Below, in pieces: positions 4,228 through 47,129 of a DNA stretch of 64,000 nucleotides. Origin of the DNA: Candidatus Nealsonbacteria bacterium (GTDB lineage Bacteria; Patescibacteriota; Minisyncoccia; Minisyncoccales; JANBVM01); assembly GCA_047456295.1 (NCBI GenBank), contig CP179887.1, positions 111,159 through 175,158 of the forward strand, read 5' to 3'. A model generated the notes under the pieces. The model was not told where the DNA came from. It made no database searches and saw only the letters and a list, made by a program, of their open reading frames with translations. The position numbers and the translations under genes were made by a program. Each line of letters begins with the position of its first letter. Within the stretch, counting starts at the first letter, position 1.

Positions 4228-5431
4228 ATGAGCAAATTTTTAAAAACAACAGTAATGGCCCCTCCACGGTCGGGAAAATCGGGAAAATTCCTGGTTACTT
4301 CCGAGTCGGTAACGGAGGGGCATCCCTGACAAAGTCTGTGATCAAATAGCAGATTCTATTTTAGACAATCTTATAAAAAAAGATAAATATTCCAGGGTAG
4401 CCTGTGAAGTAATGACAGGAATGGGTTATGTAATAGTAGGAGGAGAAATTACAACCCGTAGCTGGATAGACGTTTCTCAGATTGCCAGGGATGTGATGGG
4501 AGATATAGGTTATACAAAGCCTGAATATGGAGTTGATTCTCATACCCTGGCTGTTTTTAATACAGTTCATTCCCAGTCACCGGATATTGCAAGAGGAGTG
4601 AAGAAAGCAGGGACCCAAAAACAAGGAGCAGGAGACCAGGGATTTGTAGTTGGTTATGCTTGCAATGAAACCCCTGAATTAATGCCTTTGCCAATAATGT
4701 TGGCTCACAAATTAGTTAGAAGATTAGCTCAAGTTCGGAAAAAGAAAATTATACCTTATTTGAGGCCTGACGGTAAAAGTCAGGTAAGCGTTGAATATAG
4801 AAACGGGATTGCTAAAAGATTAAATAACGTGGTGATTGCAGCCCAGCATGACCCTGATGTTTCTTTAAAAAAGATTAAACAGGATATCAAAAAACACGTA
4901 ATTAGACCTGTTTGCCAGAGGTTTTTGGATAGAAGAACGAGATATTATATAAATAATACAGGTCGATTTGTTATTGGAGGACCTGTGGCTGACACAGGGG
5001 CTACCGGGAGAAAAACAGTTGTTGATTCTTATGGAGGAGTAGTTCCTATCGGAGGTGGTAGTTTTTCAGGCAAGGACCCGACTAAAGTTGATAGGTCAGG
5101 TGCTTATATGTCTCGCTATATTGCAAAGAATATTGTAGCTGCAGGTCTGGCAGAAAAATGTGAAGTTCAAATAGGTTATGTAATAGGGGGAGTAGAACCT
5201 TTGTCCTTAAAAATAGAAACTTTTGGAACGGGAAAAGTTTCTAATGAAAAATTGGTAAAAGTAGTTCCTAGGGTTTTTGAGTTAAACCCGGGAGGAATTA
5301 TTAAACAGCTTAAACTTTTAAGACCTATTTACCGCAATACAGCAGCTTACGGACATTTTGGGAGAGAAGAACCGGGTTTTACTTGGGAAAAAATAGATAG
5401 AGTAAAACAACTCTTGAAATTATTCCCTTAA
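4228..5431 (+). CDS. metK: S-adenosylmethionine synthetase, reading frame interrupted by a +1 shift at 4324-4330
   Basis: Frame 1 (4228-4329) encodes ...[13 protein letters not shown] then stops. Frame 2 from 4328 continues [13 protein letters not shown]...GGEITT...QSPDIARGV...GAGDQG...YGHFGR. Joined, the two give a complete MetK. Confidence 0.85.
4314..4330 (+). other. candidate +1 frameshift site (or single-base insertion)
   Basis: GGAGGGG CAT CCC TGA C. A +1 slip of the P-site Pro-tRNA from CCC to CCT restores GHP-DK. Confidence 0.4.
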
Positions 5432-5454
5432 AATGGTTCATCTGAGCAAAACCC

Positions 5455-5760
5455 ATGACAAGGTTAATCAAAAAAACATTTAAGCTATTTAAGAAAGTAG
5501 TTAAAAGATTGTTTGGTTTAGTTGAACTTTTCTTATTCTTAAGATTATTGCTTAAATTCTTAAATGCCAATCCAAAAGCTATTGTGATTAGTTTTATTTA
5601 TAAATATAGCGATGTTTTAATTTCTCCTTTCAATTTTATTTTTCCAAATATCTACTATAACAATAAGGTTATTGAAACAGCTACCATTTCAGCAATGATA
5701 GGTTATGCTATTTTGGTTTTTGTCTTTTTTAAACTCCTATATCTTTTTTCCAGAGATTAA
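5455..5760 (+). CDS. YggT-family-like small membrane protein
   Basis: 101 aa with two hydrophobic segments. The pattern LLKFLNANP...ISPFNFIFP resembles YGGT repeat proteins. Confidence 0.45.
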   Translation: MTRLIKKTFKLFKKVVKRLFGLVELFLFLRLLLKFLNANPKAIVISFIYKYSDVLISPFNFIFPNIYYNNKVIETATISAMIGYAILVFVFFKLLYLFSRD

Positions 5761-5785
5761 AGCATTAAAATACATCTAATGAAAA

Positions 5786-7264
5786 ATGGCAAAACTACAT
5801 AATGATTTAATAAATAAAGAGTTCTGGTATAGAGATATTACCCTCATTCCCAATAGACTACCTGATTTTGAGAGAGATGAGGTTGATTTAACTACTCATT
5901 TTACTAAAAAAATAATTCTCAAAGCTCCCTTTGTTTCCTCGCCAATGGATACGGTTACAGGCTCTGACATGGCAATATTAATGGCTCTATATGGTGGAAT
6001 GGGAGTAATTCACTATAATTTTCAAACTATTGATGAACAGATTAAAGAGGTTGAAACAGTTAAAAGATTTGAAGCAGGATTTGTTTACAATCCCATAGTC
6101 TTATCTCCTAAAAATACCATTAAGGATGTTTATGATATTAACGATAAATATGGTTTTTTTAGTGTTCCCATAACAGAAGACGGAACCTTAAACTCAAGAT
6201 TGGTAGGAATTGTCACCCATAGAGATGTGAGATTCAGAAGTGATATGAAGACGAAACTAAAAGAGGTGATGACCCCAAGAAATAAGCTGAAAGCTGCTTC
6301 GAAAAAGGAGACCGTAGATAAAAATGATTTAAATGAAGCTAATAAGATAATAAAGAAATATAATGTTGATACATTAGTGATTGTTGATGAAAAAGATAAG
6401 GTTGTAGCTTTAGTTACAGATAGTGATTTAAGAAAAAATAAACAGTTTCCCTTGGCAACAAAGACCGAAAATAAACAATTAATAACATTCATTGCTGTGG
6501 AATCAAGGTTAAAATCAGCTAGAGAGAGAATTGCCAAAGGTGTTGATGCTGGAGTCGATGGAATTGTTATTGATGCCAGTATTGTTTTTAAAGAACAGAT
6601 TGAGATTGCTAAATGGACAAAGGAGAATTTTCCTCAGCTGGAAGTAGTTCTGGGAAATATTGATTCATCTGAAATGGTAAGAGAGATAGTTAAAAAAGCT
6701 TTTCAGTATTGTGATGGTTTAAAAGTGGGGATAGGGCCTGGAGCTGCCTGTATTACCCAACAGGAGCTTGGAACAGGCAGGGCTCAGGCTTCAGCAGTAT
6801 GGGATTGTGCCCAGGAAACGAAAAGACTGGAAAGAGAATATGGTTTTATGCCAATAATTGCTGATGGCGGCATTAAGGTTGATGACATTACTAAGCCAGG
6901 AGACATAACAAAAGCATTGGCTTTGGGTGCTCAAACCTGCATGATGGGTTCTTTGTTTGCTGGTCTTGATGAGTCGCCAGGAGAGACAGAGTTTGATTAT
7001 AAAGAAAATAGAATGGTTAAAAAGTATCGAGGAATGGGGTCTTTGGAAGCAATGGAAAAGAGGTCAGCTGCAAGATATGCGGTTGATAAGGTTAAAATAA
7101 GAATTCCAGAAGGTAGGGTGGTGAAAGTACCTTATCGGGGCTCAGGTCATGATTTTTTACCCAAACTCATAAGTGGAGTGAAACAAGGTTTTCAGAAGCA
7201 AGGATTTGAAAATATTGCTCAGCTCCAAGAATTTGGTGATATCCGTCCTTTATCAAAGCGATAA
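5786..7264 (+). CDS. guaB: IMP dehydrogenase (with CBS pair)
   Basis: PFVSSPMDTVT, GMGVIH, active-site loop GIGPGAACITQ, GGIK and MMGSLFAG. The inserted region at about aa 95-215 is consistent with CBS domains. Confidence 0.85.
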   Translation: MAKLHNDLINKEFWYRDITLIPNRLPDFERDEVDLTTHFTKKIILKAPFVSSPMDTVTGSDMAILMALYGGMGVIHYNFQTIDEQIKEVETVKRFEAGFVYNPIVLSPKNTIKDVYDINDKYGFFSVPITEDGTLNSRLVGIVTHRDVRFRSDMKTKLKEVMTPRNKLKAASKKETVDKNDLNEANKIIKKYNVDTLVIVDEKDKVVALVTDSDLRKNKQFPLATKTENKQLITFIAVESRLKSARERIAKGVDAGVDGIVIDASIVFKEQIEIAKWTKENFPQLEVVLGNIDSSEMVREIVKKAFQYCDGLKVGIGPGAACITQQELGTGRAQASAVWDCAQETKRLEREYGFMPIIADGGIKVDDITKPGDITKALALGAQTCMMGSLFAGLDESPGETEFDYKENRMVKKYRGMGSLEAMEKRSAARYAVDKVKIRIPEGRVVKVPYRGSGHDFLPKLISGVKQGFQKQGFENIAQLQEFGDIRPLSKR

Positions 7265-7467
7265 ACCATTCTTCAATTCTTAAAAAAATTAGAATAAAAA
7301 AGAAAGAAATATTAAAGATATAAGGTTGCCAAACAATATTTAAAACGGCTTAATAAAAGTACTTTTAAACAATTAAATTTGGGTTAAAAGATAAGATAAA
7401 ATCGCCAAAGAGGCAATTTTTTAGTAGAATAAAATAAGGTCATAAGAAATAAGAAGAAGATTAACAT

Positions 7468-7698
7468 ATGAATTCAAAAAGATTAGAAGCATTTTTTGAG
7501 TTTTTAATCTTCGCAATCCTTATTGGGATAATCGAAGACTTGATTGCCATTAAGCTGGTAACTGGAGAACCAATAACACCAAGGATAATCGGCATCATAG
7601 TTTTAGTAGCTGTTCCTTTTGCTATAGTTGGAGAAATAATAGCTTATAAGATAGATTTTGTTAAGTTATCCAGAAATTTTTTCAGGAAAGATAAATAA
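7468..7698 (+). CDS. small membrane protein (76 aa)
   Basis: Two hydrophobic helices, preceded by a promoter-like TAGAAT element. Confidence 0.4.
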   Translation: MNSKRLEAFFEFLIFAILIGIIEDLIAIKLVTGEPITPRIIGIIVLVAVPFAIVGEIIAYKIDFVKLSRNFFRKDK

Positions 7699-7740
7699 TT
7701 TTTTCAAGTCTATATTTGAGCTCAAAAAAGATTTGCTAAC

Positions 7741-8952
7741 ATGATAACTAAGATACTTAGTAAATGGTATACCATATTTTTTTTAATCTTGGCAATAATC
7801 ATAATTGGAGGTTTTTCGAATCTTTCTTTAGAGCCTACCCCTTTGCCGTCACAAGAGGAAAATGATTTCAGTAAAGAAGAGTCTCTTCCAGCTGCTGTCA
7901 GTAAAGCTCCAGCTACCACTACTATTGATACTGAAATACAGGAGTCTACCTTTCAGCCACCAGAAATAGTAAAAGCTGTTTATTTAACCGGTTGGTCAGC
8001 TTCCAATCCCAGGGTTGTTGATTATGTGATTGATATTGCCAAAAACACAGAAATTAATGCAGTAGTAGTTGATGTCAAAGACTGGTCAGGGTATATAACC
8101 TATGATACGAATGTTCTTGAAGCTGAACAATATGAGGCTGAAAGAATATTAATTCCAGACATTGAAGCGTTCGTGGAAAGATTTCATAAACAAGGAATAT
8201 ATGTGATTGCCAGAATTACTGTTTTTCAAGATCCTGTTTTAGCCTGGACTAAACCCAATTTAGCAGTTTATAGAAAGTCAAATAAATTCTTGTTATGGCT
8301 GGATAAATCAGGATTGGCATGGATTGATCCAGCATCTAAAGAGTCCTGGGACTACAACATTGCCATTGCTGAGGATGCCCTGAGTCGAGGTTTTGATGAA
8401 TTGAATTTCGATTATGTGAGATTTCCTTCAGATGGTAATTTAGAAAATATGGGTTTTCCTCTGTGGAATGGAACCACTTCAAAAAATTTAATTATTAAGG
8501 GGTTTTATCAATCTCTTCGGGAAAAACTTCCCCAGGCCACCCTTTCAGTTGATCTCTTTGGGCTTTCCACTGTTAGTTCTAATTTTGGTGTAGGTCAGAA
8601 CATTGAAGATGCCTACCAGTATTTTGATTTTGTTTGCCCAATGGTTTATCCTTCTCATTATGTAGATGGGTTTAGGGGCTATCAAAATCCAGCTGAATAT
8701 CCTTATGAAATAGTGAAATATTCTATGGACAATGCCTTAGAAAGATTAAATGTTTTTAATCAGGTTTATCCAACAAAAGCCAGGTTACGACCTTGGCTTC
8801 AAGACTTTGATTTAGGGGCCACCTATGATAAAGACATGGTTCAATCAGAAATTAACGGTGTTTCTGAGGCACTAGGAGAGCATTTCTCAGGTTTTATGTT
8901 ATGGAATTCAAGAAATGTTTATACAATAGAAGCTCTCTTGCCAGCAGATTAA
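7741..8952 (+). CDS. membrane-anchored putative glycoside hydrolase-like TIM-barrel protein (DUF4015-like)
   Basis: N-terminal TM helix. VKAVYLTGWSA...INAVVVDVKD...LNFDYVRFP pattern. Confidence 0.55.
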   Translation: MITKILSKWYTIFFLILAIIIIGGFSNLSLEPTPLPSQEENDFSKEESLPAAVSKAPATTTIDTEIQESTFQPPEIVKAVYLTGWSASNPRVVDYVIDIAKNTEINAVVVDVKDWSGYITYDTNVLEAEQYEAERILIPDIEAFVERFHKQGIYVIARITVFQDPVLAWTKPNLAVYRKSNKFLLWLDKSGLAWIDPASKESWDYNIAIAEDALSRGFDELNFDYVRFPSDGNLENMGFPLWNGTTSKNLIIKGFYQSLREKLPQATLSVDLFGLSTVSSNFGVGQNIEDAYQYFDFVCPMVYPSHYVDGFRGYQNPAEYPYEIVKYSMDNALERLNVFNQVYPTKARLRPWLQDFDLGATYDKDMVQSEINGVSEALGEHFSGFMLWNSRNVYTIEALLPAD

Positions 8953-36155: not shown

Positions 36156-37277
36156 ATGTCTTTAGTGTTATACCGCAAATATCGTCCTCAGTCTTTTAGT
36201 GAAATGATAGGTCAGGAACATATTGTTAAAACCCTGACCAATGCCATTTCAAGGGAAATGATTTCCCATGCTTATTTGTTTTCAGGACCCAGGGGTTCAG
36301 GAAAGACCAGTTTGGCCAGGCTTTTGGCTAAAGCTGCCAATTGCCAAAATAGGAAAGATGGAGAATTTGAACCCTGCAATAAATGTTCTTCCTGTCTGGA
36401 AATCATGAAGGGAAGGTCAATGGATTTAATTGAGATTGATGCAGCTTCCCATCGGGGAATTGATGATATAAGGGAATTAAGAGACGGAATTCGTTTTGTT
36501 CCAACCAAATCAAAATACAAGGTGTTTATTCTTGACGAATGCCATCAGTTTTCAAAAGATGCAGCCAACGCTCTTTTAAAAACATTGGAAGAACCGCCTG
36601 ATCATGCTATTTTCATTCTGGCCACAACCCAGGTTCATAAAATGATTCCCACAATCATATCGAGGTGTCAAAGATTTGATTTTTGGAAACTCAGGCTGCC
36701 TGAAATAGTTAAAAAAATAACCTTTATATCTAAAAAAGAAGATGTTAAGATTGAAAAGCCAGCTTTGGAACTGATTGCTTTAAATGCCGGAGGTTCATTC
36801 AGGGACGCAGAAAGTCTGCTCAACCAGCTATTTACCCTTCATAGAGATTCTAAAAAAGAGATTAAAGCTGAAGACATTAAGGATTTGTTGGGATTGGTGG
36901 AAATAGAATTGGTCAGCAAATTTACTGATTTTCTCTGTGATAAAAAAACCTTTAAAGCTATAAATTATTTAAATGAAATCAATGAAAAAGGTTTGAATTT
37001 AGAGGAATTTGCCAAAACCCTGGTTAATTATTTAAGAAAAGCATTGATTTTAAAGATAATGGAAGATGGAGGAAATCCTGTTTCTGTACGGGGATATATG
37101 TCTGGTTTGACAAACGAGGAAATCCAAACGCTTAAAAGGCAGGCTGGAAACTTTAAAGAAGAAGATTTGATAAGAACTGTAAATATATTTCTGGAAGCCC
37201 AAAATAAAATGAAATATTCACCAATACCACAATTACCTTTAGAATTGGGGATTGTGGAAGTTTGCGGGGTGGTGTAA
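36156..37277 (+). CDS. dnaX: DNA polymerase III subunit gamma/tau (short form)
   Basis: YRKYRPQSF, HAYLFSGPRGSGKTS, a Cys cluster (CQNRKDGEFEPCNKCSSC), ILDECH and SRCQRF. The last 15 nt overlap tRNA-Gln. Confidence 0.9.
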   Translation: MSLVLYRKYRPQSFSEMIGQEHIVKTLTNAISREMISHAYLFSGPRGSGKTSLARLLAKAANCQNRKDGEFEPCNKCSSCLEIMKGRSMDLIEIDAASHRGIDDIRELRDGIRFVPTKSKYKVFILDECHQFSKDAANALLKTLEEPPDHAIFILATTQVHKMIPTIISRCQRFDFWKLRLPEIVKKITFISKKEDVKIEKPALELIALNAGGSFRDAESLLNQLFTLHRDSKKEIKAEDIKDLLGLVEIELVSKFTDFLCDKKTFKAINYLNEINEKGLNLEEFAKTLVNYLRKALILKIMEDGGNPVSVRGYMSGLTNEEIQTLKRQAGNFKEEDLIRTVNIFLEAQNKMKYSPIPQLPLELGIVEVCGVV

Positions 37278-37333
37278 CGGTAGCACGGGGGACTTTGACT
37301 CCCTTAATCTAGGTTCGAATCCTAGCCCCGCAG
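37263..37333 (+). tRNA. tRNA-Gln (anticodon UUG)
   Basis: Hand-folded 71-nt cloverleaf. Acceptor TGCGGGG/CCCCGCA (U1:A72), discriminator G, anticodon loop CTTTGAC, T-arm CTAGG-TTCGAAT-CCTAG. Confidence 0.85.
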
Positions 37334-37342
37334 CAGGCTTGT

Positions 37343-37363
37343 GCTCGGTTCGAGCGACCGAGA
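37343..37363 (+). repeat. GC-rich hairpin repeat, copy 1
   Basis: GCTCGGTTCGAGCGACCGAGA matches 48397-48417 at 20 of 21 positions. The stem is CTCGGT/ACCGAG. Confidence 0.7.
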
Positions 37364-37372
37364 GGCATTATT

Positions 37373-37393
37373 AACCCGATTTTTCGGGTTTTT
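37373..37393 (+). terminator. Rho-independent terminator after tRNA-Gln
   Basis: AACCCGA (37373-37379) pairs with TCGGGTT (37384-37390), followed by a T-run. Confidence 0.65.
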
Positions 37394-37415
37394 ATTACGT
37401 CAAAAATCGACAAAA

Positions 37416-37444
37416 TTGACAACGAGAAAATAAAAGTATAAGAT
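37416..37444 (+). promoter_or_regulatory. putative island promoter
   Basis: TTGACA (37416-37421), a 17-nt spacer, then TAAGAT (37439-37444). The -35 lies within the tandem repeat AAAATCGACA/AAAATTGACA. Confidence 0.4.
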
Positions 37445-37454
37445 AAAGAATAAT

Positions 37455-37631
37455 ATGGACAAACTTTTAACTATTAAAGAAGTAGCTAAAATCCTCCGAG
37501 TCAGCGAGCGATCAGTTAATCGCTATATTGAATCTGGTCGACTTAGAGCTTCGCGTATTGGTCAATGGAGAATAAAACAAAGTGATCTTAATAAATTTTT
37601 AGATAAATACTCAAATGTCAAAAGAAAATAA
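37455..37631 (+). CDS. excisionase-family / MerR-like HTH DNA-binding protein (58 aa)
   Basis: LTIKEVAKILRVSERSVNRYIESGRLRASRIGQWRI is the typical excisionase-type HTH pattern. Below the ORF-track cutoff. Confidence 0.6.
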   Translation: MDKLLTIKEVAKILRVSERSVNRYIESGRLRASRIGQWRIKQSDLNKFLDKYSNVKRK

Positions 37632-37653
37632 TTGTTAAATTCATTACTAAACT

Positions 37654-39669
37654 ATGGAAAACTTATTACACAATTTAAAAGCTTTGCTTCAAAAAGACGA
37701 GCGCCTCGTGAGCGAAGGCGAGCTTTTGAAGAATAAAATTATTGAACTTGGTTTAAAGTTGGATAAGAACCTCATCAAACTTCTTTTATCGGATAAAAAG
37801 ATGAAAGAAGTATTTTTTGCTGATATACGCCAAACACTTGTTTTTGATAAAGAGAAATTTATTCGCTTTGTTTCAAACAAGCAATTTTTACCCGATTCTT
37901 ATACTGGTTTTAAGAATAAAATTGGATTAACAGTGAAAGATGAATATTTGAGCGAGAAAAAAGAGGTTGTGCTTTCCTGGCCCTATAAGGATTGTGTTTT
38001 GGAAGGCGGAATGACAAAAGAAGACCAAAAGCGCAATGAGATTTTCTGGAATGAGATTTTAGCGCCTGATGAAATCAGCCGCCTACTTGACCCAAAAGTT
38101 TTTACCAACGCAAAAAGGATTGATAAAAAAGGCGAGCATAAATTAAACGGATTTAGAACCGATGAAAATGGAAATATTAAAGACAATCTCATTATTAAAG
38201 GCAACAACCTTTTAGCATTACATTCCCTTAAAAAACGCTTCGCCGGAAAAGTAAAACTCATTTACATCGACCCGCCGTATAATCGCGAAGCTGATGCATT
38301 CTACAATGATAGCTTCAAACATTCTACTTGGCTTACCTTTATGAAAAACCGATTAGAGATAGCAAGAGACTTGTTAAAAGAAGAAGGAATCATTTTTGTG
38401 CAATGTGATGATAGCGAGCAAGCCTATCTTAAAGTATTAATGGACGAAGTCTTTGGAAGAAATAATTTTTTAAATCAAATTTCCTGGGAAAGATCAGCGG
38501 TTGCCGGATTAGGTCAAGGAGCATCTTTTGCTGTCAATGTTACAGAGTGGATAATTGTCTATGCTAAAGATAGAAATTATCTTACTGTAAACACTAACTA
38601 CGTGTTTAAAAAGAAATATCCTTTTGAGAAATTAAGAGGTTATTCAAAAATATTGGTTAACGCTGGTAAGAAAAAATTAATTGAGAGTCTTAAATCAAAA
38701 TCTAGTGGTAAAGATGTAAAGATTTATAAACATTTCAAATATAAAGTTGAAAATATTAATTTTTCTAAATTATCACAGAAAGATATAAATAATATCTACA
38801 GTAAAAATTTTAATATTATATTTAGGCCTTTTCTAGTTCAAAAAGAAAATAAATTTCAACATAGTTTAATAAAAAAAATGGACCGTGGGTTATATTCTGT
38901 CGAATACATCCCTAGCAGAGGCAAAAACGCAGGCAAGAGAACTACACTTTTTTACTGGAATAAAGAATTAGTGGCTTTTTTGAAAAATAGTGCAGCGGTG
39001 CAAGAGGGAAAAGTTATAAAATTAGAAAATCCAAATGACTTTTGGACAAGAGACGAAATTTCAAATGCCGCCCGAGGAGAAGGAGGTATTAAAGGTCTTG
39101 ACAGAACAAAAAAACCAGAAATTTTAATGCAGAGAATTATTGAATGGACAGCTACTTCAAATGATATTGTTTTAGATTTTTTTATGGGAACAGGAACTAC
39201 TTGCGCTGTTGCCCATAAAATGGGACGCCAATATATAGGAATTGAACAACTTGATTACGGAGAAAATAGCGCAGAAGTGAGATTAAAGAATGTTGTCAAT
39301 GGTGATCCAACAGGTATCTCAAAATCAGTCGGCTGGAAAGGCGGTGGAGATTTTGTTTATTTAGAGCTTATGAAATGGAATGAAAATTTTGTAGATAGAA
39401 TTCAGAAAGCAAAAACAAAAGCTGATCTTAAAAAACTCTGGAAAATAATGAAGAAGAAAGCCTTTTTAAGTTATAAGGTGGAGCCAAAGGTTATTGATGG
39501 AAACGCAAAAGATTTTGCTGATTTATCACTAGAAGGTCAAAAGCAATTTTTGCTTGAGTGTTTGGATAAAAACCATCTCTATATCAATTACAGCGAGATT
39601 GATGATGAGGATTATGGAGTGAGTAAGGGGAATAAGAAGTTAAATAAAGAGTTTTATAAATCCTTATAA
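37654..39669 (+). CDS. mod: type III restriction-modification methyltransferase (Mod, N6-adenine, beta class)
   Basis: IYIDPPYN (motif IV) lies upstream of VLDFFMGTGTTCAVA (motif I). A variable central region is consistent with a target-recognition domain. Confidence 0.85.
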   Translation: MENLLHNLKALLQKDERLVSEGELLKNKIIELGLKLDKNLIKLLLSDKKMKEVFFADIRQTLVFDKEKFIRFVSNKQFLPDSYTGFKNKIGLTVKDEYLSEKKEVVLSWPYKDCVLEGGMTKEDQKRNEIFWNEILAPDEISRLLDPKVFTNAKRIDKKGEHKLNGFRTDENGNIKDNLIIKGNNLLALHSLKKRFAGKVKLIYIDPPYNREADAFYNDSFKHSTWLTFMKNRLEIARDLLKEEGIIFVQCDDSEQAYLKVLMDEVFGRNNFLNQISWERSAVAGLGQGASFAVNVTEWIIVYAKDRNYLTVNTNYVFKKKYPFEKLRGYSKILVNAGKKKLIESLKSKSSGKDVKIYKHFKYKVENINFSKLSQKDINNIYSKNFNIIFRPFLVQKENKFQHSLIKKMDRGLYSVEYIPSRGKNAGKRTTLFYWNKELVAFLKNSAAVQEGKVIKLENPNDFWTRDEISNAARGEGGIKGLDRTKKPEILMQRIIEWTATSNDIVLDFFMGTGTTCAVAHKMGRQYIGIEQLDYGENSAEVRLKNVVNGDPTGISKSVGWKGGGDFVYLELMKWNENFVDRIQKAKTKADLKKLWKIMKKKAFLSYKVEPKVIDGNAKDFADLSLEGQKQFLLECLDKNHLYINYSEIDDEDYGVSKGNKKLNKEFYKSL

Positions 39670-39671
39670 TT

Positions 39672-40127
39672 ATGGACAACGAAGAATTAATAAAAATTAA
39701 AGAGGACGCTGTAAAAATTCAGATTAGCGATTTGCAAGATACAGTAAAAAGTATTGAAAATGAAAACATAAAATCTTCATTTATCTTGGGGTTTGCCGGA
39801 ATATTATTTGGTTTAGTTTTTAATAAGGTTGATATTTTACCTTTATGGCAAGCAATAGTTTTTATTATCTTATTGTTAAGCTCAATCAAGCTTGCTTTTT
39901 GGAATATAACAGCAAAAAAAGTCAATATTCACATCAATGTAGATGAAATCTTTGTAAACAACGAACCAAGAAAATGGGAAAAATATCTTAATTTTAAGCA
40001 TCTGCGATTGCGGAAAAATTATCGAAATGCTAAAAACCTGCTTTATCAAAAAGCTAATTATACAAGGTTATCTTTTGTATTATTAATTTTATCAGCGTTT
40101 TTCCTAGCAATAATACAACTTTTTTAA
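39672..40127 (+). CDS. 3-TM membrane protein embedded in the RM operon
   Basis: ATG lies 2 nt after the mod stop. Hydrophobic helices SSFILGFAGILFGLVF, LWQAIVFIILLLSSIKLAFW and LSFVLLILSAFFLAIIQLF. Confidence 0.5.
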   Translation: MDNEELIKIKEDAVKIQISDLQDTVKSIENENIKSSFILGFAGILFGLVFNKVDILPLWQAIVFIILLLSSIKLAFWNITAKKVNIHINVDEIFVNNEPRKWEKYLNFKHLRLRKNYRNAKNLLYQKANYTRLSFVLLILSAFFLAIIQLF

Positions 40128-40129
40128 TT

Positions 40130-40330
40130 ATGAGCACAAACAATAAAAAAATCGAAAAACATATAGGCGAACAAGCGCCTCTTAGTGCAAACAATCAAGG
40201 TTCTGATAATCAAAATCCCGAAAATAAGCCAGATAATGATCAGGAGAATTCTAATCAAGGTACAAGTAATCCATTAAAACCCCAAGAGACGCAAAAAGGT
40301 GTTAATGGTAAAGATATTAAGGAAAAATAA
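40130..40330 (+). CDS. small low-complexity N/Q/D/E/K-rich protein (66 aa)
   Basis: ATG lies 2 nt after the previous stop, and its own stop lies 1 nt before the res ATG. The composition suggests intrinsic disorder. Confidence 0.35.
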   Translation: MSTNNKKIEKHIGEQAPLSANNQGSDNQNPENKPDNDQENSNQGTSNPLKPQETQKGVNGKDIKEK

Positions 40331-40331
40331 T

Positions 40332-42944
40332 ATGCTTTACGAAGTTTTTAATTCATTAAAAGAAGCACACGGGCAGGATTATTTTACTCAACGGATTGAT
40401 GATGAAATAATCCAAAATCTCAATCCAAAATTTGAGTTGCGGGAGTATCAAAAAGAGGCATTGGGGCGATTTAATTTTTATTTTAACGGTTATCAAAAAA
40501 GACAATTCCCGGCCCAGCTTCTTTTTCATATGGCAACCGGAAGCGGTAAAACCCTCATAATGGCGGCTAATATTTTGTATTTATATAATCTTGGTTACCG
40601 CAACTTCATCTTTTTTGTAAACAGCACTAACATTATTGAAAAAACAAAAGATAATTTTTTAAATCCTTTGTCAGAAAAATATCTTTTTGCCCCCAAAATC
40701 AAATTTGGCGAAAAGCAAGCTGAGATTAAAGAGGTTCAAAATTTTGAAGCTACCAATCCGGAAAACATAAACATTATTTTTACTACTATTCAGGGACTAC
40801 ACACCCGCCTAAATTATCCAAAAGAAAACGCTTTAACTTATGAAGAATTTGAAGGAAAAGATATTGTTTTAGTTTCTGATGAAGCTCATCACCTGCAGAC
40901 ATTAACAAAATCTAAGTTAACCAAAACTGAAGAAGGAGAAAAAAGAAGCTGGGAGTATACAATTATTAAAGGAATTTTGAAGAGGAATTCTAAAAATATT
41001 TTGTTGGAATTTACAGCCACGATTGACCTAGGCAATCAAGGCATCAGGCAGAAATACGAAAACAAGATTATTTATCAGTATGATTTGAAGCAATTTCGCT
41101 TGGATAAATATTCAAAAGAAATCGAGGTTTTACAGGCAGATTTAGACCCTATTGACCGAGCTTTGCAAGCAGTTGTTCTAAGTCAGTATCGTAGAAAGAT
41201 TGCCGAAAAAAACAAAATAAGGTTAAAGCCGGTGATTCTTTTTAAGTCCAAAACTATTAAAGAATCAAAAGAAAATTATGAAGGTTTTTTAACGAAAGTA
41301 AAAAAATTATCTTCCAAGGATATACAAGAAATATATTCACGGGCAAAAGACACAAACTTAGAAAAAGCATTTAACTATTTTGAAAAAGAGAAAATAACCT
41401 TTGACAATTTAATTAGGGAGTTACAAGAGGATTTTTCTGAAGAAAAATGTATGCTTTTGGATTCTGAAAATGTTGATGAAGAGAAGCAGTTAAAACTTAA
41501 TTCTTTAGAGAACAAGAATAATGAGATGAGAGCCATTTTTGCAGTTAATATGCTCAACGAAGGTTGGGACGTGCTTAACTTGTTTGATATTGTTCGGTTA
41601 TACGATACGCGGGACGGAAAATGGGTTCACGGTAAGTATAAACCCGGCAAGACAACAATGGGTGAGGCGCAGCTTATTGGCAGAGGGGCAAGATATTTTC
41701 CATTTCAAATAGATGAGATACAGGATAAGTATAAAAGAAAATTTGATGATGATATAGAGAATGATTTGCGCATTTTAGAGGCATTATACTACCATAGCTC
41801 GCATAATCCGGATTATATTTCAGAATTAAAATCCGCTCTTATTGAAATTGGAATTTTACCGGAAAAGTATATTCAGAGAGATTTGTTTATTAAAAATTCT
41901 TTTAAGAAAACTGAATTTTGGAAAAAAGGTGTGATTTTTATAAATGATAGGATACAAAATCCCAGAACGGAAATATTTAGTTTGCAGGACGCAGAAATTG
42001 AAGAGAAATATAGACGCGAATTGAGAACTGGAGAAATTAAAGAAGAAATTATTTTAGATGAAGAAAAAAAACCAAAGTCATCAAAAAACATTGCACGCGG
42101 CAAGATGGTATATAAACTCGATGATTTTGGAGAAAATATAGTTCGAAACGCATTAGATAGGTTTGAGTTTTATAAATTTGGAACATTAAAGAAATATTTC
42201 CCGCATATAAAATCAGTTAAAGAATTTATTTCATCGTTTAATTATTTAGGTAGCGTTGAGATAGAAGTTTTAGGCCCAAAAGACAAAATAAATAAATTAA
42301 CTCCAACTCAAAAATTAGAAATGATTCTATTTGTAGTTAAAAAAATATCAGAACAAGCAAGAACTAATACTTCAGAATTCAGAGGGAGTAAATTATTTAA
42401 AGCAAAAATGTTGCAAGATATTTTTAGGGATAAAGTTTTAAAGTTAGATAAAGATAGTGAAAGAGCGAAAGAAATGGCTGAAGTAAATTTGGCGGATAAA
42501 AACTGGTATGCGCAAACCGATTTGTGTGGTACTAGCGAAGAAAGAGATTTCATTAAATTTATTGATGGATTTATAGAAAAGTTAAGACAGAAATATTCAG
42601 ATATTGCTTTACTTCGCAATGAGAAATTCTTTCAAGTTTTTGACTTTGATGAAGGCAGAGCATTTGAGCCGGATTTTATAATGATTTTGAAAAAGAGAAA
42701 TAGGACAATAAGTATTTATCAGATTTTTATTGAACCAAAAGGAGATCAATTTAAAGACAGTCAAGGCAGGTTTGAAAATTCTAAAGAAGGATGGAAAGAA
42801 AAATTTTTACTTGAAATGGAAGAAAAAGCAGACACTGATTTAAAATTGGAAAATAAACACTTTAAGCTAATGGGGTTGCCTTTTTACAACGAAAAATTAA
42901 AAAAAGATTTCGAGGAAGCTCTAGAAAATAAAATATTAAATTAA
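40332..42944 (+). CDS. res: type III restriction enzyme Res subunit (SF2 helicase plus PD-(D/E)xK nuclease)
   Basis: MATGSGKT, VSDEAHH, FTAT, QLIGRGAR and C-terminal FEPDF...IEPKG. ATG 40332 preferred over the track start. Confidence 0.85.
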   Translation: MLYEVFNSLKEAHGQDYFTQRIDDEIIQNLNPKFELREYQKEALGRFNFYFNGYQKRQFPAQLLFHMATGSGKTLIMAANILYLYNLGYRNFIFFVNSTNIIEKTKDNFLNPLSEKYLFAPKIKFGEKQAEIKEVQNFEATNPENINIIFTTIQGLHTRLNYPKENALTYEEFEGKDIVLVSDEAHHLQTLTKSKLTKTEEGEKRSWEYTIIKGILKRNSKNILLEFTATIDLGNQGIRQKYENKIIYQYDLKQFRLDKYSKEIEVLQADLDPIDRALQAVVLSQYRRKIAEKNKIRLKPVILFKSKTIKESKENYEGFLTKVKKLSSKDIQEIYSRAKDTNLEKAFNYFEKEKITFDNLIRELQEDFSEEKCMLLDSENVDEEKQLKLNSLENKNNEMRAIFAVNMLNEGWDVLNLFDIVRLYDTRDGKWVHGKYKPGKTTMGEAQLIGRGARYFPFQIDEIQDKYKRKFDDDIENDLRILEALYYHSSHNPDYISELKSALIEIGILPEKYIQRDLFIKNSFKKTEFWKKGVIFINDRIQNPRTEIFSLQDAEIEEKYRRELRTGEIKEEIILDEEKKPKSSKNIARGKMVYKLDDFGENIVRNALDRFEFYKFGTLKKYFPHIKSVKEFISSFNYLGSVEIEVLGPKDKINKLTPTQKLEMILFVVKKISEQARTNTSEFRGSKLFKAKMLQDIFRDKVLKLDKDSERAKEMAEVNLADKNWYAQTDLCGTSEERDFIKFIDGFIEKLRQKYSDIALLRNEKFFQVFDFDEGRAFEPDFIMILKKRNRTISIYQIFIEPKGDQFKDSQGRFENSKEGWKEKFLLEMEEKADTDLKLENKHFKLMGLPFYNEKLKKDFEEALENKILN

Positions 42945-42980
42945 AACCTTACGAAATTAATTGAGAAATAAAGAATATAT

Positions 42981-43547
42981 ATGGACTGGTTAAATTTTTT
43001 TTCGCCAATTAATATGATTGAAAAAATAATCAATTGGTTTTTTCGCCCAAGGATTAAAGTAAATTTTGAATATAAGTTAGATCCTGTCAGTGAAAATGAT
43101 TTCTGTCACTTAAGGAGAGATCGAATTACGGGAAGGCTTTGTTGGTTTTTTAGAATGGGTATAGAAAATAAAGGAAGTACAGTTGTAAAAGATTGCGATA
43201 TTAGAATAGAAAAGATTGAGAGAATAATAGAAGAAAAATGTAAAGAAATGAAAAATTTTAGTCCCATTGTATTACATTGGGCAAACATAGAATCCGATGA
43301 ATCTAGGGATTTACATAAAGATACACCAGAATTTATAGATGTAGTATATACCATGGAAGGAGAAAATAATTTTTATATTTTTGCGAAAAGGAAACATATA
43401 GGAGTGGGAAGCAATATTATTTGGCCATCTGGACAATATCGGCTTTATTTAAAAGTTTTGGGAGATAATATAAAACCACATAGAATTACTGTTTTCATTA
43501 ATTTCAACGGGCATTGGGACCAATTGGAAATGAAACTAGAAAGGTAG
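42981..43547 (+). CDS. hypothetical protein (188 aa), no recognisable motif
   Basis: ORF in the same orientation as res, 36 nt downstream. Soluble and beta-rich-looking sequence. Confidence 0.45.
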   Translation: MDWLNFFSPINMIEKIINWFFRPRIKVNFEYKLDPVSENDFCHLRRDRITGRLCWFFRMGIENKGSTVVKDCDIRIEKIERIIEEKCKEMKNFSPIVLHWANIESDESRDLHKDTPEFIDVVYTMEGENNFYIFAKRKHIGVGSNIIWPSGQYRLYLKVLGDNIKPHRITVFINFNGHWDQLEMKLER

Positions 43548-43619
43548 AAAAATGCTATCTGGCCTATTAGAATTTAGGCGAATTTTATTTAACCAATCAA
43601 TTTTAAACAAAACATTTAT

Positions 43620-44009
43620 ATGAGAAAAATTATAATTAATACAGCTAAAGAAATTTCGGCCGAGGAGAAACAAATTCTTAAAAATATTTTTAGAGAAGAA
43701 TCTTTGGAAATTGGAATAAATGCTTCTTTTATGCGTTTTTCTGGGGTAGAAATTTTACCGTTAGTTATAGAACTCTCTGTAACAGCAATCAAGGTGGTGT
43801 TAGGTGGTGTAGCATATGATACTTTGAAAAGAATTGTAAAGAAAATTTTATCAAATCGAAGAATTAAAAGGAATAAAGAAATTATTATAAAAAAGCGAGA
43901 AAAGACTTTTGTTGTTACCTCAAAAGGATTTTATTTAAGAAGTAAAAAGGAAAACTCTGTATTCCGAAATATAGATGAGTTTTTCGAGAAAATGGAAAAA
44001 GGGAAATAA
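43620..44009 (+). CDS. hypothetical protein (129 aa), basic C-terminal half
   Basis: ORF with one hydrophobic stretch (ILPLVIELSVTAIKVVLGGVA). Confidence 0.4.
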   Translation: MRKIIINTAKEISAEEKQILKNIFREESLEIGINASFMRFSGVEILPLVIELSVTAIKVVLGGVAYDTLKRIVKKILSNRRIKRNKEIIIKKREKTFVVTSKGFYLRSKKENSVFRNIDEFFEKMEKGK

Positions 44010-44078
44010 GAACAATTTTATCTTTGGCTTAGAACAAGCAAAAACAAGGTCGAAGAAATTAATTAAGGAATAAAATTT

Positions 44079-44816
44079 ATGGATTCTACTTTTTGGATAG
44101 CACTTGGAAGTATAGGGACTTTTGTTATGGCAATTGCTACATTCATAACTTTATGGCGTTATCAGAAAGAGAAAAGAGAAAAAGAAAATAGGGAAATTAG
44201 TGAAGAAATCATCTTACCCATAAAAGAAAACATAAAAAACTTAATTAATATTTTAAAAGAACATAGAATAGATAATTTTAATTGGGACACCACAAAAAAG
44301 AATAATCCAATTCTTGTTTATAGGCTTTCAGGAGACCTGAAAGCAGATATAGGAAATTTCAATAAAGAGTTTAAAAAATTCGGAAACATATATTACCAAA
44401 TAAAACCAGGATTAGAAGAATTAATTTATTTAGAAATTTTTAAAAGAGCTAGAAAAAAAGCGGCAAAGGAGTTAAAGGAAATAGTTACAACTAATCAAGA
44501 AGTTTTAGCGCGTTCCTATTATCAATGGAAAAGGGGCGGCAAAGCCTTTTTTGTTTCTTTTTATGAGTTGATATTTAAAGACGAAACGCTTAATGAATAT
44601 ATTGATAAAACAAAGAAAGACTCGGAAATCTATAACCAACAAATTACCGATGGGGCTTTTATAATTGGTGGGGTGGGGAAGATTAAAGAATTTAATAAAG
44701 AAGAATTTAATGATATTTACGAAACTTTAAAAAAAGAGACTCAAGAAAATCCGACCCTACAAGAATATATTAATTTTTGGAGAGAAATTTCTAAAAAAGC
44801 ACAAAACCTACTTTGA
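44079..44816 (+). CDS. hypothetical protein (245 aa) with N-terminal TM anchor
   Basis: FWIALGSIGTFVMAIATFITLW, followed by a charged helical region. Confidence 0.45.
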   Translation: MDSTFWIALGSIGTFVMAIATFITLWRYQKEKREKENREISEEIILPIKENIKNLINILKEHRIDNFNWDTTKKNNPILVYRLSGDLKADIGNFNKEFKKFGNIYYQIKPGLEELIYLEIFKRARKKAAKELKEIVTTNQEVLARSYYQWKRGGKAFFVSFYELIFKDETLNEYIDKTKKDSEIYNQQITDGAFIIGGVGKIKEFNKEEFNDIYETLKKETQENPTLQEYINFWREISKKAQNLL

Positions 44817-44913
44817 AGAAAAAAGTTGGTCAAGGCGACTCTTTAAATGGTTTTCTAAAAGGAGGAAGGCTGTTTTAAAAATAATTGTATCGTTTTTTGA
44901 GAAGTAAAATAAA

Positions 44914-45840
44914 ATGAAGAATAAGATAAAACTTATTAGTATAGTTATTGGGGCGGCAGTTTTGGTTTCAGTGGGGTTTGGGTTGGGGAGGCGGTCAATG
45001 TCTTCAGAAATTACGGAGTTGAAAGACAGGGTAGCTTCTCTTGAAGAGCAGATAAAAGTACAGAACCAATTAGGAGAAAAAGTTGAAGAGAAGAAAAAAA
45101 TAGGCCCTACGGGGCCGACAAGATTAGCTACTGTTAATTATGTTATTGACGGAGATACTATTGAAGTGGATGAAGAAGAAAGGGTTCGTTATTTGGGAAT
45201 AAATACTCCTGAGTCAGGCCGTCCATATTTTAGTGAAGCCACCAATGAAAATAAAAAGTTAGTGGATGGGAAAGAAATCAAATTAGAACTTGATGTTCAG
45301 ACCAAAGACAAATATAACCGAACTTTAGCGTATGTTTGGATAGGGGAGACAATGGTTAATTTAGAATTAGTCCGTAGGGGGTTTGCCAATGTTTATACTT
45401 TTCCGCCTAATGTGAAGTATAAAGAGCAGTTTTTAGAAGCTGAACGAGAAGCCAGAGAAAATTGTAGAGGCCTTTGGTATCCTTGTAAAATTGCTGGCGC
45501 TGAAAATGGAATTAAAATCGTAAATATTAATGCTGACGCTCCCGGGAATGATAATGAGAATAAAAATGGAGAGTGGTTAGAGATTAGGAACCAAGAAGAA
45601 AACTCCGTTAGTATGACAAATTGGACAATAAAAGACGAAGCTAATCATATCTACACTTTTGCTGATTTTATTTTAGCTCCGGATAAAAGTGTGTTTATTT
45701 ATTCTGGCTGCGATATTGATACTCAGGAAAAACTCTATTGGCAATGTCCTGAGGGCGAATATGCTATTTGGAATAATTCAGGCGATACAGCTTTCTTAAG
45801 AGACGCCAGCGGAAATTTAGTAGATAGTTATAAATATTAG
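44914..45840 (+). CDS. membrane-anchored thermonuclease (SNase) fused to a lamin-tail domain
   Basis: N-terminal TM and coiled coil. VIDGDTIEV..RVRYLGINTPE, DKYNRTLAYVW, then GEWLEIRN...NWTIKD (LTD-like). Confidence 0.75.
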   Translation: MKNKIKLISIVIGAAVLVSVGFGLGRRSMSSEITELKDRVASLEEQIKVQNQLGEKVEEKKKIGPTGPTRLATVNYVIDGDTIEVDEEERVRYLGINTPESGRPYFSEATNENKKLVDGKEIKLELDVQTKDKYNRTLAYVWIGETMVNLELVRRGFANVYTFPPNVKYKEQFLEAEREARENCRGLWYPCKIAGAENGIKIVNINADAPGNDNENKNGEWLEIRNQEENSVSMTNWTIKDEANHIYTFADFILAPDKSVFIYSGCDIDTQEKLYWQCPEGEYAIWNNSGDTAFLRDASGNLVDSYKY

Positions 45841-46005
45841 AAAAACAGAAGAATAGAAAGAAAACAGGGGTCAACTCTATTTTTCATTAAATTAGTAAAT
45901 ATTTTTTAAATACTGTCCCATTTGTTTTATAAAAATAAAATGAAAAAATGAAAAAAATCAGCGAATTTAAAACCTTCAAAAACAGTCTAAATCTCCCTTA
46001 AAACA

Positions 46006-46020
46006 CTGGTTCGAGACCGA
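46006..46020 (+). repeat. degenerate copy of the GC-rich hairpin repeat
   Basis: CTGGTTCGAGACCGA shares GGTTCGAGA..CCGA with copies 1 and 3. The following GACCGACTAC recurs at 50914-50923. Confidence 0.4.
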
Positions 46021-46041
46021 CTACGGGAGCAGATGAGTTTA

Positions 46042-46078
46042 AAAATCGCCAAGAAGGCGGTTTTTTGGTAGAATAAAA
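46042..46078 (+). promoter_or_regulatory. terminator-like hairpin plus extended -10 (TGGTAGAAT); 37-nt repeat of 7398-7434
   Basis: ATCGCC/GGCGGT stem, then TTTTTT, then TGGTAGAAT. 32 of 37 positions are identical to 7398-7434. Confidence 0.5.
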
Positions 46079-46103
46079 AAAGATAATTAATTAAACCGAA
46101 ATT

Positions 46104-47129
46104 ATGCTGAAATCCTTAAAAAAAGGACATGAATTAGAGGAGAAAGTTGAAAAATATTTTCAGTTAAATGGTTATCAAACTAAAAGAAATGTAGTCTTAG
46201 AAGGTAAATCCGGCGGTAGGCATGAGATAGATATTCTAGCTGAAAAATCAGATGGCGTTACAACAATAAAAATGATGGTAGAATGTAAAGCGTGGAATAA
46301 ACCCATAGACAAGGACGTTGTTTTTAAAGTTAACTATATCGTTAAAGACTTGGGGCTAAATAAAGCAATTATAGTTACATTAAAAGGATATAGAATAGGA
46401 GCAGAAAAAGCGGCTAAAGAATTAGGAATTGAACTTTGGGACGGATATGAATTAGAAAAAAAATTAGGAAAAATTTCAGTAGCGGAATTAGAGATAAAAG
46501 AATTTGAAAAGATTGCTTTAGGATTTCCAGTATTAATAACAAAAAAGGAAGCACATTCTTTTATTAGTAAACAAAGCAGGGGTTTTTGGGGAATGGGAAA
46601 AGAAGAAATCAGAGTATTTAATCTTATCTGGCTTCCTTGTTACTTATTGAAAATTAGTTGTACAAAAACTGAAGGAGTGTTTAGAAGAAAGTCAACGACA
46701 AAGCCTATTTGGAATTTATACGAATCATTAGAAGGTAATTGGTTCTATACATTTGAAGAAATACCAAAAATAGAAAATGTTAAAGTAGAAAACACTTTGC
46801 AACCAAAAATAAAAGATGTCGAGATTATAAAAGAAATACAAAAAATATTTAAAAAATCTTCCGAAGTAGTAACTTTTAAGGCCCAAAAACGTTATGCTAG
46901 AAAACTGGAAAAAAAGGGGATACATTCGCCATTAGTGACTGATATTACATTTGATAATGTAACATATTTGCTTTATCCATTCTTCATTGCTATTCTTAAA
47001 AGAGATGAAAAAGAAAGAATTATAGTTGTAGATGGCGTTATCGGTAAAATTAATAAAAACATTGGTTACGTTTTGACCACAAACCTGAATTACATCATAC
47101 AAAATCTAAAAATGTTGGATGGGAACTAA
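46104..47129 (+). CDS. Mrr-like (PD-(D/E)xK) restriction endonuclease domain fused to an unknown C-terminal domain
   Basis: The N-terminal ~115 aa contain GHELEEKV..YF..NGY, HEIDILA and VECKAW (D...ExK). The C-terminal ~225 aa are unrecognised. Confidence 0.65.
   Translation: MLKSLKKGHELEEKVEKYFQLNGYQTKRNVVLEGKSGGRHEIDILAEKSDGVTTIKMMVECKAWNKPIDKDVVFKVNYIVKDLGLNKAIIVTLKGYRIGAEKAAKELGIELWDGYELEKKLGKISVAELEIKEFEKIALGFPVLITKKEAHSFISKQSRGFWGMGKEEIRVFNLIWLPCYLLKISCTKTEGVFRRKSTTKPIWNLYESLEGNWFYTFEEIPKIENVKVENTLQPKIKDVEIIKEIQKIFKKSSEVVTFKAQKRYARKLEKKGIHSPLVTDITFDNVTYLLYPFFIAILKRDEKERIIVVDGVIGKINKNIGYVLTTNLNYIIQNLKMLDGN

Follow-up and report, generated by a model that had tools for sequence, protein, structure and literature searches.

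Restriction-modification (RM) systems are usually treated as self-contained sets of a methylase and a nuclease, the classic exception being PrrC, whose gene acts in abortive infection and lies inside one particular RM operon. Here we describe a type III RM operon of a Candidatus Nealsonbacteria bacterium, located in a stretch of 64,000 nucleotides (GenBank assembly GCA_047456295.1, contig CP179887.1, positions 111,159 to 175,158 of the forward strand; hereafter the window), in which two small genes lie between the methyltransferase gene mod and the restriction gene res. The first encodes a protein of 151 amino acids with three transmembrane (TM) helices, the second a disordered peptide of 66 amino acids. 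Together with its relatives in other genomes, this two-gene cassette suggests an undescribed accessory arm of restriction.

The two extra genes of the type III locus and their families

The operon and the region directly upstream of it contain the following features, in window coordinates:

37263..37334, + strand: tRNA-Gln(ttg), called by ARAGORN
37373-37390: terminator-like hairpin just past the tRNA-Gln gene, from the terminator scan
37416-37444, + strand: best sigma-70-like promoter match of the region (TTGACA, 17-nucleotide spacer, TAAGAT)
37455..37631, + strand: HTH_17/excisionase-family DNA-binding protein, 58 amino acids (Pfam PF12728, E=8e-18)
37654..39669, + strand: Mod, type III RM methyltransferase, 671 amino acids, intact (PF12564 and PF01555; PADLOC MTase_III)
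39672..40127, + strand: three-TM protein, 151 amino acids, starting 2 nucleotides past the mod stop
40130..40330, + strand: disordered partner peptide, 66 amino acids, starting 2 nucleotides past the stop of the TM gene
40332..42944, + strand: Res, type III restriction subunit, 870 amino acids, intact, starting 1 nucleotide past the stop of the peptide gene

These facts of gene structure are near certain. The order of the four genes and the gaps of 2, 2 and 1 nucleotides between them, the first following the mod stop codon TAA at 39667-39669, had been given in an initial annotation of the window and proved exact to the coordinate. Mod matches PF01555 (E=3e-44), the type III N-terminal domain PF12564 (E=9e-23) and the PADLOC model MTase_III (E=9e-187), while Res matches the superfamily-2 helicase family ResIII (PF04851, E=8e-30) and, over residues 31-868, the PADLOC model REase_III (E=5e-131). 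Both genes lie on the same strand and in canonical order, but they are split by the two extra genes, with 662 nucleotides from the mod stop to the res ATG; although mod is not directly followed by res, the system is still of type III. The res start is the ATG at 40332, from which the Res homologues of two related loci (L002 and L025) align; GTG 40299, an alternative start offered by the open reading frame (ORF) listing, was rejected on the basis of this alignment.

The tRNA-Gln gene and the hairpin behind it form the upstream boundary of the RM gene cluster. The sigma-70-like site at 37416-37444 is a candidate operon promoter by consensus match only, as the number of such sites in the region does not exceed that in shuffled sequence. 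The 58-residue HTH_17 protein, which also matches TIGR01764 and, weakly, MAD1, is encoded by the first gene of the cluster and is a putative regulator. The terminator scan found no terminator-like site on the + strand between 37390 and 43562. Going by the gaps of the window locus and the tight same-strand junctions at most related loci, the cassette is embedded in and co-transcribed with the RM operon.

By hydropathy, the 151-residue protein has three hydrophobic segments at approximately residues 35-53, 58-80 and 131-151, and its AlphaFold2 model, computed from a 43-sequence alignment with a predicted local distance difference test score (pLDDT) of 83, places helices at residues 3-50, 58-80 and 99-150. 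The model agrees with the layout first described for the protein, namely an N-terminal amphipathic helix, two adjacent TM helices, a basic linker and a terminal TM helix. The N-terminus is acidic (+5/-9) and the loop between the second and third TM helices is basic (+12/-4), and an N-in/C-out topology is therefore predicted. A word-seeded search recovered 45 homologues, and when 1.84 billion cluster representatives were searched exhaustively with a profile, just 64 were found; the family is genuine but rare. It has 19 invariant positions, among them K8, D12, D20, D23, S27, E31, N78, K82, H87, Y117 and K127, and its conservation peaks in the cytosolic helices, with the TM segments varying more. 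The family occurs mainly in the Candidate Phyla Radiation (CPR) and other uncultivated lineages; named hosts include Nealsonbacteria, Saccharibacteria, Paceibacterota, WOR-3, Omnitrophota, Thermodesulfobacteriota and Thermokryptus. Each small product of the window has a 100% identical counterpart among annotated Candidatus Nealsonbacteria proteins (P0001 and P0113). Neither small protein has a significant match in Pfam, NCBIfam or PHROGs. The cassette was found neither in plasmid and phage collections, searched by tblastn with the TM protein, nor in a scan of IMG/VR viral contigs, and there is no evidence in these collections that plasmids or phages carry it.

The 66-residue peptide is rich in asparagine, lysine, glutamine and glutamate, is 14% hydrophobic and has no hydrophobic segment. 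AlphaFold2, run on 56 sequences, returned a model with near-absent secondary structure apart from a single three-residue helical turn at residues 60-62 (pLDDT 64, predicted template modelling score 0.17), in which local confidence is highest at two conserved motifs. In the window peptide these read KHIGEQAPL (residues 10-18) and NPLKPQETQKG (residues 47-57), and across the family they follow the patterns KH[IV]GEQxPL towards the N-terminal end and NP[LI]KPQETQKG towards the C-terminal end, separated by a low-complexity middle part of variable length. A search from the peptide side retrieved 63 proteins of 34-91 amino acids, all but one of them 51-91 amino acids long. The median ratio of non-synonymous to synonymous substitution rates (dN/dS) in the peptide gene is 0.32, with dS saturated, and both motifs are almost invariant. 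No domain, and specifically no DNA-binding domain, was detectable in the peptide.

Wherever a fetched locus has an intact TM gene and a contig that continues beyond it, a small ORF comes next, and, conversely, the TM gene lies immediately upstream of the peptide gene wherever the latter was looked up and upstream sequence was available. Since both ORFs have families of approximately 45-64 homologues and these families co-occur, the two are not a chance pairing. Both are real genes under selection; a lack of conservation or frame-disrupted copies, which would have spoken against a functional role, were not encountered at intact homologous loci.

Across more than 40 loci the peptide gene starts at a separate ATG, which often overlaps the TM gene as ATGA or stands behind a GGAGG sequence. 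A programmed -1 frameshift joining the two products had been considered on account of a T6 run at the stop of the TM gene (CTT TTT TAA TT ATG) and of four loci with gaps equal to 2 modulo 3, where the peptide gene is in the -1 frame relative to the TM gene; it was rejected in view of the separate start codons and the mixed gaps. The distances from the TM gene to the peptide gene include 2, 8, 3, -4, -8, -10 and -22 nucleotides, so that no single frame relation exists, and the junction is one of ordinary translational coupling.

In some distant members of the TM family a peptide-like tail is part of the TM protein itself. These proteins are longer (176-239 amino acids) and end in hydrophilic C-terminal tails, of which six (P0051, P0075, P0082, P0100, P0103 and P0105) show H-x-[GW]-E...P and E-x-[QE]-K-G motifs that match those of the peptide, and two (P0050 and P0096) have a single one of these motifs; P0110, with 203 amino acids, likewise exceeds the core length. 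These natural fusions of tail and TM protein indicate that the peptide, or the tail in its place, and the TM protein probably act as one functional unit.

Restriction-modification contexts of the cassette

When the related loci were reduced to 23 non-redundant context classes, approximately 19 of them had recognisable RM genes in the same-strand cluster, and these belonged to types I, II, IIG, ISP and III. The cassette lies within the RM operon or at its 3' end, and at most RM loci the upstream gene usually ends 1-5 nucleotides before the start of the TM gene. The arrangements are as follows, with L numbers denoting individual loci:

Window, L025: type III mod, cassette, res
L001, L002: type III locus that has lost the Mod core, with an AAA_14 gene inserted before res
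L017, L023: remnant of the Mod C-terminus upstream of the cassette
L026, L027 (proteins P0016, P0018): Mod residues 1-99 fused in frame to the TM protein
L011-13, L024: type IIG enzyme, 70-residue ORF for the Mod C-terminus, then cassette
L003-6, L028: type I hsdM-S-R, YgjP, KAP NTPase, then cassette
L049, L050: type I, TM gene lying between hsdS and hsdR
L014-16: cassette immediately 5' of a methyltransferase-S fusion and an HsdR-like helicase
L007-10: D12 methyltransferase and a 363-residue protein
L018: EcoRV-family restriction endonuclease and D12 methyltransferase
L019, L056-59: EcoRI-type methyltransferase, with GmrSD/HNH next in L056-59
L020: N6_N4 methyltransferase and HNH
L021: type ISP
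L039: Eco57I/TaqI_C methyltransferase
L040: ResIII helicase
L043, L053, L054: helix-turn-helix (HTH) gene and type IIG enzyme, L053 and L054 lying in a WOR-3 chromosome
L045: N6_N4 methyltransferase with a decayed TM fragment

The insertion into a type III operon that had first drawn attention to the two genes is thus real at the window, but it is no peculiarity of type III systems, as the pair forms a portable cassette that also accompanies unrelated systems of types I, II, IIG and ISP. The same variety of partners argues against the earlier suggestion that the membrane protein might be an anchor or regulator of Res. Four partner proteins encoded next to methyltransferases, of 363 (L007), 603 (L019), 320 (L052) and 259 (L060) amino acids, have no PADLOC match and may be restriction enzymes that are not recognised as such.

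Among the nearest relatives of the window locus, the cassette is accompanied by what is left of the 3' end of mod and the 5' end of res, which makes the type III operon its ancestral home in that clade. The conserved DNA in the flanks of this type III clade consists of these inherited remnants only, and no recombination site, inverted repeats or transposase were found there. In the clade of 150-residue TM proteins, the cassette is the last element of the operon and is followed by GC-rich hairpins.

Individual loci show how such remnants look. The 70-residue ORF at L011:7786-7998, which recurs in L012, L013 and L024, is 69% identical to residues 608-671 of the window Mod, and it appears that at loci of this kind either the cassette moved or the upstream gene was replaced, a piece of mod being taken along. 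Remnants of the res 5' end lie 3' of the peptide gene in L001, L026 and L035. At L026:2309-3022 and L027:4382-5095 (P0016, P0018 and P0047), the first approximately 95-99 residues of Mod, corresponding to PF12564, are fused in frame to the TM protein and the methyltransferase core is gone. The clusters of these fusion proteins hold 13 and 8 members, which points to a recurrent product or a decaying locus rather than to a one-off assembly error.

Relation to known effectors and proposed function

Among the profiles of known defence proteins, two PADLOC models of PycTM match the 151-residue protein, with E=6.8e-6 (residues 10-141, covering positions 5-142 of the 160 in the model) and E=1.7e-4. 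Of 43 family members, one model matches 30 and the other 31, the best E-value being 1e-7, and many relatives carry precomputed weak or faint matches to PF18967. The initial annotation had likened the layout of the protein to that of the small TM effectors of nucleotide-signalling defence systems, and these near full-length matches bear out that likeness. We consider homology to PycTM probable but remote. A recent preprint describes PycTM as the pJV1-SpdB3 family of three-TM effectors and shows that EcPucTM, a relative of that class, assembles into a hexameric cylinder in which a channel approximately 15 A wide is lined by the TM2 helices; it also reports an abortive-infection-like phenotype (bioRxiv 10.64898/2026.08.12.744502). 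Such a channel is known for EcPucTM only. The 151-residue protein shares with PycTM and PucTM (PF18967) a size of approximately 150-160 amino acids, three TM helices together with a helical cytosolic region, and a setting in defence islands. Unlike those effectors, it has no adjacent cyclase, is translationally coupled to RM genes, comes with a disordered peptide or a fused tail, and stays below the Pfam threshold. No cyclase domain was detected in the window genes between 37455 and 45840 or in the called genes of approximately 25 related context classes, and with no cyclase alongside the cassette this is not a Pycsar system.

Other known systems resemble the cassette in part. A review covers the guardians of RM systems, among them PrrC, the gene of which lies within a type IC operon (PMC12707154). 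PrrC (EcoprrI, type IC) and PARIS are comparable in that an abortive-infection-type accessory sits inside an RM operon as a second line of defence tied to restriction, and in L049 and L050 the cassette even occupies the same position between hsdS and hsdR as prrC does. PrrC, however, combines an ABC-ATPase with a nuclease and is related to the three-TM protein neither in sequence nor in fold; searches of the small proteins against Pfam, NCBIfam and PADLOC gave no PrrC/RloC-type domain (ABC-ATPase and anticodon nuclease). Moreover, PrrC is kept latent through direct binding to one RM enzyme, whereas the cassette accompanies many unrelated ones. A second parallel, drawn from published descriptions, is offered by SpdB3-Spd79 of Streptomyces conjugative plasmids, where a membrane-protein gene is followed by the gene for a small protein of 79 amino acids in one operon; SpdB3 of pSVH1 is highly toxic in E. 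coli and the small gene spd79 lies next to it (PMC4447253). The PycTM class is named after the SpdB3 of pJV1. That pair, in contrast to the cassette, acts in plasmid spreading with TraB and does not adjoin RM genes. The SLATT and 2TM effectors of CBASS, retron and DRT systems are likewise small helical membrane effectors, and a few family members marginally match CBASS 2TM, CARF_TM or RT-SLATT models, but such matches occur in 1-4 of 43 members only and fall below the PycTM ones in strength, and the number of TM helices and the partner genes differ. A description of the cassette was not found in a non-exhaustive literature collection. What is new here is a membrane protein, probably of the PycTM/SpdB3 class, that is coupled to RM genes, free of a cyclase and equipped with a conserved disordered partner, of which PADLOC sees a weak PycTM match only.

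The explanation that we favour, tentatively and with the balance close to even, is that the two genes form an accessory cassette which has been recruited repeatedly into RM operons and which pairs a cyclase-independent PycTM/SpdB3-like effector with a disordered regulator. Judged by its junctions, the cassette is expressed from the RM operon and stoichiometrically coupled to it instead of being a unit of its own. The 151-residue protein, as a remote member of the PycTM/pJV1-SpdB3 class, would oligomerise once released and form a pore that depolarises the membrane, and the disordered peptide would regulate it through its two short motifs, either by plugging and so inhibiting it or in the manner of a labile antitoxin. 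Since the RM partners are mutually unrelated, a contact with one specific RM enzyme is unlikely as the trigger, which would have to be generic, for example the shut-off of operon expression or translation in infection, or the loss of the RM locus. The outcome would be a second, suicidal line of defence for any RM system, the stabilisation of the RM locus, or both, with no need of a cyclic-nucleotide signal. Of the components of this explanation, the effector identity of the 151-residue protein is rather probable, while an abortive-infection or addiction role of the cassette is possible but open to some doubt. A more specific version, in which the cassette is a portable, signal-independent backup of restriction, a PycTM-like pore held shut by the peptide or tail and opening upon the silencing, inhibition or loss of an RM operon, whatever its type, appears unlikely at present.

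Several observations weigh against the favoured explanation. The similarity to PycTM is remote, with 24.5 bits for the window protein and E-values that refer to a library of 5,027 models only. A Pfam scan of 43 family members did not detect PF18967 at E<=1, and the family profile, run against the full library, did not reach a bona fide PycTM at E<=1e-3, as judged from 64 unnamed hits. A Foldseek search of the TM model against the PDB gave generic long-helix matches only, none at E<=0.001. Approximately four of the 23 context classes (L047, L051, L052 and L060/61) have no recognisable same-strand RM gene, each of them lying near recombinases, opposite-strand RM genes or Thoeris TIR genes. The predicted N-in/C-out topology leads to a paradox, as it places the fused tails of P0082, P0100 and P0105 outside the cell, while the free 66-residue homologue of the tail has no signal sequence and is expected to be cytoplasmic. 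A covalently fused tail is also a poor fit to a degradable antitoxin. Finally, the survey covered the sequences reachable here, which are mostly short metagenomic contigs.

The alternative that survives best, although we think it unlikely, is toxin-antitoxin-like addiction, in which a stable three-TM toxin and a labile peptide antidote would stabilise the RM island by post-segregational killing and no phage would be sensed. Two small co-translated genes that end RM operons with unrelated partners would suit such a module, as would the integrases or serine recombinases that flank several loci, the disorder of the peptide, which labile antitoxins often share, and the toxicity of SpdB3-class proteins on expression (PMC4447253). 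Yet a type II toxin-antitoxin system is an autonomous unit with its own promoter and a DNA-binding antitoxin, and none of this applies here: the cassette itself brings neither a promoter nor an operator and is preceded by no intergenic space, following the RM genes at 1-5 nucleotides (2 nucleotides after mod in the window), and the peptide has no DNA-binding domain, so that classical autoregulation is absent. The natural fusions of tail and TM protein are hard to reconcile with differential decay of the two partners, and type II RM systems are themselves already addiction modules.

A non-lethal role at the membrane seems quite unlikely. The protein would then exclude superinfecting phages, block the entry of DNA or act as a scaffold by which restriction is positioned where foreign DNA comes into the cell, and it is in keeping with this that a small membrane protein is consistently linked to DNA-targeting enzymes, that a ligand common to these systems, for instance DNA, could bind to its conserved cytosolic surface and that DNA uptake is prominent in CPR bacteria. 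The namesake SpdB3, moreover, is part of a membrane DNA-translocation complex (PMC4447253). Given enzymes as different in structure as the EcoRV-like, HNH, type I, III, IIG and ISP partners, however, a docking surface shared by all of them is unlikely, no DNA-binding or peptidoglycan-binding domain was detected, and the nearest profile matches are to abortive-infection effectors.

That the cassette is a hitch-hiking passenger, a small selfish or neutral unit that lands at operon ends in defence islands and has no connection to restriction, is improbable. Such a unit would account for the contexts without recognisable RM genes, and the pieces of mod and res that the cassette drags along in the clade closest to the window mean that its RM linkage there is partly inherited and not independently acquired. 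It would leave unaccounted for, however, at least 10 mutually unrelated RM partners across TM clades of 39-87% identity, the tight same-strand junctions, the purifying selection on both genes and flanks in which no transposase, inverted repeats or conserved DNA were found. A true Pycsar or Pucsar-type effector activated by a cyclic mononucleotide from a cyclase encoded elsewhere in the genome, as suggested by the PycTM profile matches and the three-TM architecture, is very improbable, given that such effectors normally adjoin their cyclase, that the genes surveyed hold no cyclase domain and that CPR genomes are minimal.

Should the cassette indeed combine a cyclase-independent effector with a disordered regulator, the layering of restriction with a second, membrane-acting line of defence would be a more general design. 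Three-TM proteins of the PycTM/SpdB3 type would then be deployable without a cyclic-nucleotide cyclase, which raises the question of their gate, and the peptide, with its two short invariant motifs and variable linker, is a concrete and testable candidate for it. If the more specific backup version held, the cassette would be the first generic guardian or abortive-infection module that fits RM types I, II, IIG, ISP and III alike, and would provide cyclase-free gating of PycTM/SpdB3-class channels. Its main hosts, the CPR/Patescibacteria and other uncultivated lineages, are organisms whose defence biology is almost unexplored.

Neighbouring genes at the window and related loci

Two of the related loci types contain further genes of interest beside the cassette. 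In L014, a protein of 938 amino acids (6014-8830), encoded between the methyltransferase-S fusion and the HsdR-like helicase in the operon that adjoins the cassette, matches the PADLOC models Ppl, LmuB and PDC-M49A, and is an SMC/ABC-ATPase-type defence component in an RM-like operon. L056-L059 share a compact cluster (4545-8309) that occurs on more than 24 contigs and has the order HTH gene, Hypoth_Ymh, EcoRI-type methyltransferase of 243 amino acids, TM gene, peptide gene and GmrSD_N/HNH (type IV-like) nuclease; in its vicinity is a SocA/Panacea toxin-antitoxin gene, and a cognate type II restriction endonuclease is not recognisable.

At the window, the position of an excisionase-family HTH gene behind tRNA-Gln resembles an island boundary, but no integrase or direct repeat of the tRNA end was found within 10 kb. 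A search for integration scars around 37200-47000, be they repeats of the tRNA-Gln 3' end or others, returned only AT-rich repeats at chance level. Directly after res, three ORFs of 188, 129 and 245 amino acids follow on the same strand (42981-44816), which have the lowest GC content of the region (0.28-0.30 as compared to approximately 0.35 in the flanks) and may belong to the same island as additional cargo. They have no family match except for the 245-residue product, which carries an N-terminal hydrophobic segment and weakly matches a PHROG holin (E=6e-5). The gene at 44914-45840 encodes a protein of 308 amino acids with staphylococcal-nuclease and lamin-tail domains behind an N-terminal TM or signal segment, which matches the PADLOC candidate defence protein C3a212 ("SNc+LTD") with E=1e-31.

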